A stretch of DNA of 64,000 bases from Patescibacteria group bacterium. GTDB taxonomy: Bacteria; Patescibacteriota; JAHJAL01. The stretch is from positions 92,995-156,994 of the forward strand of contig JBMORM010000009.1 of assembly GCA_049322675.1 (NCBI GenBank), in the 5' to 3' direction. Shown here one piece after another: positions 34,807-35,281 of this stretch (position 1 is its first letter; every line of letters begins with the position of its first letter). The notes below the pieces were generated by a model. That model did not search any database. It was given only the letters and a program-made list of their open reading frames with translations, and was not told where the DNA came from. The position numbers and the translations under genes are program-made.

Positions 34807-34891
34807 AATATTTAAAATATAATATTAATAAAAATTTAAGGAGTATTTTGTTAAATTAACAATTAACAATGAAAAATTAACAATAAAAATT

Positions 34892-35257
34892 ATGAAAGAT
34901 AAACAAAATAATGTTATTCAAATAAAATCATTTAATTTTTCAATAAGGATAATAAAATTATCTTTGTATTTATCAAAGCAAAAATGGGAATATATAATTT
35001 CAAAACAGATAATAAGGAGCGGAACTTCAATAGGGGCAAATATAGAAGAAGCAATTGGCGGCTATTCTAAAAAAGATTTTATGAATAAAATTTCTATTGC
35101 GTACAAAGAAGCAAGGGAAACATTATATTGGATTAAATTATTATATGCCACAAATTTTTTATCAGAAAAAGAATATCATTCCATATCAATTGATTGCCGA
35201 GAGCTACTGAAAATTTTAACTAAAATATTGATTACTTGCAAAAAAAGTAAAAGTTAA
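34892..35257 (+). CDS. Four-helix-bundle protein (23S rRNA intervening-sequence protein family, PF05635-like), antisense insertion inside the atp operon
   Basis: 121 aa. The motifs RSGTSIGANIEEAIGGYSKKDF and KEARETLYWIKLL are diagnostic for this family. Imperfect inverted repeats flank the gene (ttaaattaacaattaacaatgaaaaattaacaat / ttaattgttcattgttaattttt). Confidence 0.7.
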   Translation: MKDKQNNVIQIKSFNFSIRIIKLSLYLSKQKWEYIISKQIIRSGTSIGANIEEAIGGYSKKDFMNKISIAYKEARETLYWIKLLYATNFLSEKEYHSISIDCRELLKILTKILITCKKSKS

Positions 35258-35281
35258 TTATTAATTGTTCATTGTTAATTT

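Follow-up and report, generated by a model that had tools for sequence, protein, structure and literature searches.

A PF05635 gene between inverted heptad arrays interrupts the atpG-atpD junction of a patescibacterial ATP synthase operon: a likely intervening-sequence-type cassette outside rRNA

The 23S ribosomal RNA (rRNA) of Coxiella burnetii contains an intervening sequence (IVS) of 428-444 nt, which carries an S23p (PF05635) open reading frame (ORF) and closes with a 28-bp terminal stem; tandem GACAGAT heptamers lie directly before the ATG, and RNase III cuts in the stem at the first repeat (PMC4990558). According to the works cited there, S23p-type IVSs also occur in Leptospira, Brucella and Xanthomonas (PMC4990558). 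In bacteria of the Candidate Phyla Radiation (CPR), insertions in 16S and 23S rRNA genes carry LAGLIDADG, GIY-YIG or 23S_rRNA_IVP (PF05635) ORFs (PMC11270868). Here, we analyze a 64,000-nt stretch of DNA (the window; GC 37.8%) from an uncultured member of the Patescibacteria (CPR), contig JBMORM010000009.1, in which a PF05635 gene coding for a four-helix-bundle (HB) protein lies antisense between atpG and atpD of the F1Fo ATP synthase operon. We think it likely that this gene belongs to an IVS-type PF05635 cassette of about 433 bp that resides outside rRNA, and that the two arms of the cassette form an RNase III-type stem in RNA from either strand.

The first-pass annotation of this DNA had reported a 121-aa antisense ORF between atpG and atpD of an otherwise contiguous operon, and ORF calls and Pfam matches confirm it. 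The atpG-atpD gap is 475 nt long and holds one real ORF. The range given earlier for the insert, 34807-35281, holds as the atpG-atpD spacer as a whole; the cassette proper is narrower, about 34853-35285 (433 nt). These bounds follow from the alignment of the lineages, all of which have a heptad array right behind the atpG stop codon and about 40 nt of leader ahead of atpD. From the positions of the arrays and the ORF, we show that the cassette is laid out as one PF05635 gene with inverted arrays of 4-6 heptads set close against its two ends. L082 in the following list is the corresponding locus of a relative.

34892-35257, + strand: HB gene, 121 aa, antisense to the atp operon, PF05635/TIGR02436
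34853-34891: left arm, AATTAAC/AATGAAA heptads, about 5.7 copies (Tandem Repeats Finder [TRF], period 7 at 34854-34892); kept in L082
35253-35285: right arm, inverted GTTAATT heptads, about 4.7 copies (TRF, period 7)
34807-34852, - strand: apparent native atpD leader/spacer, separating the cassette from the atpD ATG; identity to L082 about 91%
36193-35282, - strand: atpG (F1 gamma), which precedes the cassette in the reading direction of the operon (PF00231, E=8e-91)
34806-33451, - strand: atpD (F1 beta), which follows the cassette in the reading direction of the operon (PF00006, E=4e-75)

The stretch 34807-34852 looks like the native leader of atpD, and it is also a candidate site for the HB promoter and the atpD translation start region. 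An AAGGAG motif lies within this conserved leader at 34838-34843 (+ strand).

The inverted repeat reported to flank the gene is real and is longer than first claimed, 29-32 nt with 88-90% complementarity. Several pairing registers exist because the arms are tandem heptads: 34856-34887 pairs with 35254-35285 (32 nt, 88% complementary), and 34853-34881 pairs with 35253-35281 (29 nt, 90%). The left arm, ending at 34887, stops 4 nt 5' of the HB ATG, and the right arm extends from the HB stop codon across that of atpG (35282-35284). The arm score is far above that of shuffled sequences (z=10.7). Folding the arms as RNA, we obtained duplex energies of -19.8 kcal/mol for the + strand and -21.8 kcal/mol for the - strand, and none of 500 shuffles was as low. 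On both strands, the minimum-free-energy fold and the centroid fold retain the terminal stem that encloses the ORF. The heptad units are permuted in L082 relative to the window; the complementarity of the arms is retained.

Turning to the protein, we find matches to PF05635 (23S_rRNA_IVP; E=1.2e-25, 90.2 bits vs a cut-off of 33.8) and TIGR02436 (E=5.3e-29, 100.6 bits vs a cut-off of 24). Both motifs that the first-pass annotation had quoted as hallmarks of rRNA IVS proteins, RSGTSIGANIEEA and KEARETLYWIKLL, are present. Of the family motif GxxRxxxSxxxNxxE (Lin 2006, as quoted in PMC3936711), the protein carries RxxxSxxxNxxE (R-SGT-S-IGA-N-IE-E), with the leading G replaced by I ('QIIR'). An AlphaFold model of the monomer, built from 43 homologues, reached a pLDDT of 93.5 with helices at residues 8-30, 35-55, 60-86 and 92-118, and on this model we are confident that the protein is a four-helix bundle. 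By sequence, the protein matches 2RLD (BT_0352 of Bacteroides thetaiotaomicron) with E=2.5e-30 and 48% identity. Searching the model against the PDB by Foldseek, we again obtained the best match with 2RLD (TM 0.87-0.96), and 2GSC (Xcc0516 of Xanthomonas campestris) aligned with TM 0.68-0.84. These two 'S23 ribosomal protein family' proteins share the fold and the RxxxSxxxNxxE motif with the window protein; they are pentameric bundles with no assigned function. To our knowledge, the four-helix-bundle protein encoded by IVSs has had no known function since 1993, and in public annotation and metagenome databases PF05635 genes carry merely the label 'four helix bundle protein'.

Pfam matched the HB protein, the sole ORF of the cassette, to PF05635 only, with no transposase or nuclease domain and no LAGLIDADG, GIY-YIG, HNH or similar homing-endonuclease domain. 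Membership of a defence system was also considered and rejected, as PADLOC gave no match. The earlier label of the gene as the cargo of a selfish insertion does not hold; the HB ORF is instead the signature gene of the cassette itself. PF05635 is homologous to Avd, the accessory protein of diversity-generating retroelements (DGRs) (PMC10053308), and the HB model aligns to the Avd structures 4DWL and 8UB7 (TM about 0.65-0.76). The two proteins share superfamily, fold and the character of a small basic bundle, and Avd binds reverse transcriptase and RNA. Nevertheless, that the HB protein is itself the Avd of a DGR is hardly credible to us: it is far nearer the non-DGR BT_0352 (48%) than Avd (8-13% identity), both of its neighbors are atp genes, and unlike Avd it has no reverse transcriptase or template/variable repeats nearby. 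Across the 64-kb window, no reverse-transcriptase motif occurs in a plausible ORF. YxDD matched in only two ORFs of the window, a giant one and one that we take, from its sequence, to be a methionyl-tRNA synthetase.

Comparing the window with L082, we counted 16 non-synonymous and 30 synonymous differences in the HB gene (dN/dS 0.09). This ratio shows, by codon comparison, that the gene is under purifying selection, and it indicates that HB encodes a functional protein though it lies antisense. The HB gene is compositionally foreign, with a GC of 24% and a GC at third codon positions (GC3) of 19%, vs 34-44% GC in the neighboring genes. It has no Shine-Dalgarno sequence, which is normal here, since only 8 of the 46 long ORFs of the window have the motif upstream; the organism thus appears to start translation mostly without one.

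We next set the cassette against the described systems. It resembles the Coxiella IVS in protein family, size (433 vs 428-444 nt), heptads before the ATG and the want of a good Shine-Dalgarno sequence. It differs in lying antisense in an intercistronic spacer of a protein operon and not in an rRNA gene, in its unit (AATTAAC vs GACAGAT) and in its ORF, which is under purifying selection where the Coxiella ORF is reported to be decaying. The Coxiella stem is cut by RNase III; for the window stem, such cleavage is a prediction. A scan with Rfam found no rRNA gene in the 64-kb window, so the element is not an rRNA-resident IVS, and it detected no intron or ribozyme at the site. With the rRNA insertions of CPR bacteria the cassette shares the host group and the kinds of ORF, since the atpG-atpD junction holds 23S_rRNA_IVP in the window and in three other loci (L025, L027 and L177) and GIY-YIG in a fourth (L061); the site, a protein-operon spacer, differs. 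Like miniature inverted-repeat transposable elements (MITEs) and repetitive extragenic palindromes (REPs), these are short AT-rich intergenic inverted repeats that have ORF-less forms (L173 and the window) and vary in presence among close relatives. Unlike MITEs and REPs, their arms are tandem heptads with no unique terminal repeats, the full version carries a non-transposase ORF, and no transposase or target-site duplication was identified for the HB cassette.

The layout is not peculiar to the window. We surveyed 80 metagenomic loci with HB proteins 50-63% identical to that of the window, which gave 84 gene instances. A flanking inverted repeat with z>3 was found in 79% of the 84 (median z 7.75), vs 6.5% of 201 other ORFs in the same loci (median z 0.16). 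By an unbiased periodicity test, heptad arrays occur in 71% of left and 62% of right HB flanks. Their density in the 100 nt next to the ends of HB genes is 31 times that in the remaining sequence. Typical arms read ...AATTACGAATTACGAATT-ATG...TAA-TTCGTAATTCGTAATT..., the usual unit is AATTACG, and AATTA is contained in 42 of 55 left-arm consensus units. The two arms of a locus match each other better than arms taken from different loci (score 15.9 vs 11.3, p=2e-9; unit Hamming distance 1.03 for own pairs vs 1.83 for cross pairs). A clear inverted repeat is present in 55 loci. Here the arms measure 26 nt at the median, 47% of the right arms have their first base within the stop codon, and from arm to arm the cassettes span 435 nt (median; interquartile range 420-456). 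A more distant HB gene (L025) has 27-nt arms, 93% complementary, built of 8-nt units. No inverted arms were detected at the HB gene of L027, so the arms are not kept by every family member. In the literature that we searched, heptad arms as a general property of PF05635, or a class of such cassettes outside rRNA, were not found described; the only description was that for Coxiella.

The survey also shows how the cassettes usually sit. HB is on the same strand as its upstream neighbor in 60 of 63 loci (median gap 42 nt) and as its downstream neighbor in 46 of 61 (median gap 33 nt). The antisense layout of the window is thus rare, and HB antisense between two co-directional genes was found in 1 of 47 loci. 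The co-orientation with the upstream gene suggests that the usual cassette rides on host transcription. Classing the protein as an rRNA-IVS type, as the first-pass annotation did, is right for the family (PF05635/TIGR02436); by location the related loci are mostly elsewhere, as an Rfam scan of 40 of them placed none in rRNA. In 5 of these 40 loci, same-strand transfer RNA (tRNA) or transfer-messenger RNA (tmRNA) genes adjoin HB:

L095, 2900-3620: HB cassette beside same-strand tRNA/tmRNA, here between tRNAs
L098, 1060-1518: HB cassette beside same-strand tRNA/tmRNA
L099, 489-948: HB cassette beside same-strand tRNA/tmRNA
L116, 2564-3633: HB cassette beside same-strand tRNA/tmRNA, here between tmRNA and two tRNAs
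L120, 983-1515: HB cassette beside same-strand tRNA/tmRNA

Another locus, L091, has two HB cassettes (2998-3354 and 4078-4431) about 700 nt apart with near-identical AATTACT/AATTACA arms, and this pair suggests, from its arms, repeated insertion in one operon.

We then compared the atpG-atpD junction among relatives, recovering closer ones through atpG homologues; the percentages that name the lineages are atpG amino acid identities to the window.

L169-172, 94% lineage (atpG and atpD about 89% identical in nucleotides): no HB homologue; unrelated 187-aa membrane ORF, sense
L082-087, 84% lineage: the same antisense cassette, arms present
L173 and L174, 68% lineage: 159-nt spacer with nested ORF-less heptad hairpins; outer arms 31 nt, 90%
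L177, 62% lineage: uncalled HB ORF (TTG start, 64% identical), sense; 32-nt arms, 91%
L175 and L176, 61% lineage: 43-nt spacer
L025 and L027, further CPR genomes: sense PF05635 genes at the junction
L061: GIY-YIG nuclease gene at the junction
Other CPR junctions: small membrane ORFs and ORFs without family match

The comparison favors insertion, as the first-pass annotation had proposed. The closest lineage has no HB gene, and the median spacer in 39 CPR-like atp loci is 41 nt; spacers of at least 300 nt occur in 9 of these 39 loci and in none of 37 non-CPR loci. The HB proteins of the window and L082 are 91% identical by BLASTP and 88% over a global alignment. A gene at the identical position in all relatives, with no flanking repeats, had been named as the opposite outcome; we found otherwise, because the cassette, arms included, is common only to the one 84% relative. 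Aligning the junctions, we show that the HB cassette is placed as an insertion after the atpG stop codon, ahead of a native atpD leader of about 46 nt. The comparison of relatives also shows that the junction is a hotspot, with turnover of cassettes among them. We also considered one ancestral insertion followed by an inversion that would join the window and L177. A common origin of the two is not demonstrable, since their HB proteins share 64% identity and, in the set compared, each lies outside the 12 best matches of the other; independent insertion is equally possible.

These data bear on whether HB, rather than being inserted, might be a conserved part of the atp operon that benefits the host, such as an F1 assembly or regulatory factor. 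Two species with synonymously saturated atp genes have HB in the same place with a dN/dS of 0.09, and two further CPR genomes (L025 and L027) have a PF05635 gene at this junction. We consider such a role very unlikely all the same. Presence and absence largely refute it, as neither the closest relative nor most CPR atp operons have HB, and elsewhere the same junction holds a GIY-YIG nuclease, small membrane ORFs or ORF-less hairpins. The orientation of HB differs between lineages, and related HB genes occur in many unrelated contexts, such as tRNA/tmRNA operons and cas operons (PMC3936711).

The history of the insertion allows two routes, either common inheritance with loss in the 94% lineage or lateral passage of the cassette between the window and L082 lineages after their split, in a homing-like manner. 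Lateral passage is possible, but we would not bet on it. In its favor, the cassette and spacer are the best-conserved DNA of the region, with 87-91% identity between the window and L082, and this equals the housekeeping divergence (about 89%) from the closer L169, which lacks the cassette. For the same species pair, atpD is about 80% identical, atpG 56-85% and the other atp spacers 42-58%. Raw dS is 0.62 for HB vs 2.1-3.3 for its neighbors, and the fraction of synonymous codons kept identical in HB is 0.73 vs 0.59 expected at saturation (z 3.5; neighbors z 0-2.9). However, the extra identity comes largely from the extreme AT bias (GC3 19%), and its excess over the neighbors is about 2-3 standard deviations on 105 codons. 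The non-coding conservation is explicable by constraint on the arms, the promoter and the atpD leader.

A different reading assigns the heptad inverted repeats to the host, as generic intergenic hairpins or processing stems found in genomes of this type; HB would then have landed in, or been captured by, the loop of an existing hairpin after atpG, and the arms would not belong to a mobile unit. We regard this as unlikely, though some observations speak for it. The window has 12 strict heptad arrays, 9 of them within the 11% of the sequence that is intergenic, and L173 has ORF-less hairpins at the same junction. Opposed to this are the 31-fold enrichment of arrays at HB gene ends over some 80 unrelated metagenomic loci, the AATTA core common to these arrays though the HB proteins have diverged to 50-63% identity, and arrays that abut the ATG and the stop codon of a unit of constant length, about 435 nt. 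In the window itself, the HB arms are made of AATTAAC units and the other hairpins of this genome of GGAAATT units. The two readings are compatible, as cassettes may target such arrays.

Several findings weigh against an IVS-type cassette as we propose it, and some of them are those that the host-hairpin reading would use. All six aligned lineages, whether or not they have HB, carry a heptad array directly behind the atpG stop codon. Elsewhere in the window, 53-nt inverted arrays bracket tRNA-Leu and tRNA-Gly, and an ORF-less hairpin with 50-nt arms lies at 30001-30121. The arm stem is A-U-rich and weak, and the 466-nt fold taken as a whole does not exceed shuffled sequences in stability (z -0.9 and -1.2). 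An HB gene that lies antisense is atypical, and its promoter is guessed from weak consensus matches. We identified no target-site duplication or recombinase and found no empty allele close enough for a duplication to show. No RNase III signature motif occurs in the 64-kb window, which is part of the genome only. The signs that the cassette is younger than its flanks are no more than suggestive, with a modest excess left after codon-bias modeling.

Retaining the IVS-type cassette as the likely explanation, we propose the following course. In RNA from either strand, the arms would pair into an A-U-rich stem of 23-30 bp that encloses the ORF. By analogy with Coxiella, Leptospira and Salmonella, this stem would be an RNase III substrate, and transcripts in either direction would be cut at the arms. 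Excision of an IVS leaves a working, fragmented 23S rRNA. Likewise, the stem in the atp transcript is probably cut by RNase III or at least tolerated, and cutting would separate the atpBEFHAG and atpDC RNAs without harm to either and so would not be a lethal disruption. It is plausible that atp transcription reads through the antisense HB gene, as the first-pass annotation had supposed, and atpD may be served by an internal promoter. A scan for promoters and terminators found no terminators and 12 promoter-like matches vs 5.4 expected, and in AT-rich DNA such matches are too weak a basis for placing a promoter at either HB or atpD. The reversed copy most likely arose by a flip through recombination between its own inverted arms, or else by insertion in reverse. 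Because the arms have the same sequence on either strand, recombination between the two offers a simple way to reach this state: the ORF would be inverted while the arms kept their positions. Being reversed, the copy is probably transcribed from a promoter of its own in the conserved stretch 34807-34891.

As for the protein, our best guess is that HB, presumed to be pentameric, is a nucleic-acid-binding protein like its distant homologue Avd and works for the maintenance or spread of the cassette. The AATTA core is kept while the proteins diverge to 50-63% identity, which suggests sequence-specific recognition beyond mere pairing. Speculatively, the homology to Avd, which binds nucleic acid and reverse transcriptase, makes HB itself the obvious candidate for a reader of the heptads. 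One may go further and suppose that rRNA IVSs are the rRNA-resident minority of a class of widespread, as yet undescribed mini-elements of about 435 bp, made of a PF05635 gene between inverted arrays of AATTAnn heptads, that colonize in sense the spacers of transcribed units (mRNA operons such as atp or cas, tRNA/tmRNA operons and rRNA). The heptads would then be more than a stem, namely the recognition sequence that HB binds in RNA or DNA, and HB would drive excision at the RNA level and/or copying into other arrays through a reverse transcriptase acting in trans or gene conversion. We offer this wider scheme as a doubtful one.

Whatever its history, the same unit that breaks up 23S rRNA is here found inside an essential protein operon as well, which extends the CPR habit of keeping selfish ORFs in rRNA genes to protein-coding operons. 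The family-wide architecture is more interesting than the locus that led us to it, and the layout (inverted heptads, about 435 nt, sense bias) gives a simple sequence rule for finding such elements. It also calls for caution with guilt-by-association. PF05635 genes inside cas operons have been noted and read as functional association (PMC3936711); genes of this family wedged in cas or other operons may be hitch-hikers and not partners.

The F1Fo operon is encoded on the - strand (gene order atpB, E, F, H, A, G, insert, atpD and atpC). Its remaining genes are as follows:

39943-39176, - strand: atpB
39123-38878, - strand: atpE
38829-38284, - strand: atpF
38284-37844, - strand: atpH
37726-36203, - strand: atpA
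33451-33035, - strand: atpC

No species representative in the genome collection matches the window atpG with more than 48% identity; the best matches are metagenome-assembled genomes of CPR bacteria. A TCAATTT array of 4.6 copies lies within the atpG coding sequence (35531-35564). It codes for 'ENWKLKI' and falls in a variable loop, which is 4 aa shorter in most of the other aligned CPR atpG proteins; these heptads are also present in non-coding atp spacers of relatives (L169 228-259 and L175 2919-2948). The atpG of L027 (4001-5005) has an insertion of about 40 aa (VIPTTRALRSVQAPEESLAHSNDGQRSLVGASLTRDDKVQ) that is missing in nine other CPR atpG proteins. Two AT-rich membrane ORFs in related atp operons had no Pfam match: one of 197 aa between atpA and atpG of L082 (6284-6877), and the one of 187 aa between atpG and atpD of L169 (2753-3316; also in L170-172).

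The first-pass annotation had suggested a search for further copies of the repeat and of the gene, for example in rRNA. In the 64-kb window, this gave one solo copy of an arm and no second HB gene (tblastn), nor any rRNA (Rfam):

58917-58952: solo heptad array, 33/36 (92%) identical to the left arm of the cassette (blastn, TRF)

It fills most of the 58-nt spacer upstream of a tatD-like gene and is possibly a lone arm, a scar or a landing site. The arrays around the two tRNAs (tRNA-Leu and tRNA-Gly, 1381-1465 and 1611-1683, - strand) are of the GGAAATT type, lie at 1315-1367 and 1709-1761 and are 83% complementary; around this two-tRNA unit they look like a processing stem. Between the two tRNAs is a perfect 25-nt inverted repeat (1474-1498/1557-1581), and a palindromic element, GTCATCCTGGA...CCAGGATGAC, adjoins the tRNA locus at 1770-1900. 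The ORF-less heptad hairpin has its arms at 30001-30050 and 30072-30121 (78%, 21-nt loop), between ABC-2 permease and ABC ATPase genes; it is missing from the 84% relative L082 and is thus an indel between the species. A giant ORF of about 3,800 aa occupies 5173-16626 of the window (- strand). In L061, hairpin units similar to the palindromic element at 1770-1900, GTCATCCTGAA...TTCAGGATGAC, form direct repeats at 5003-5100 and 5410-5500 that flank the GIY-YIG gene of the junction.

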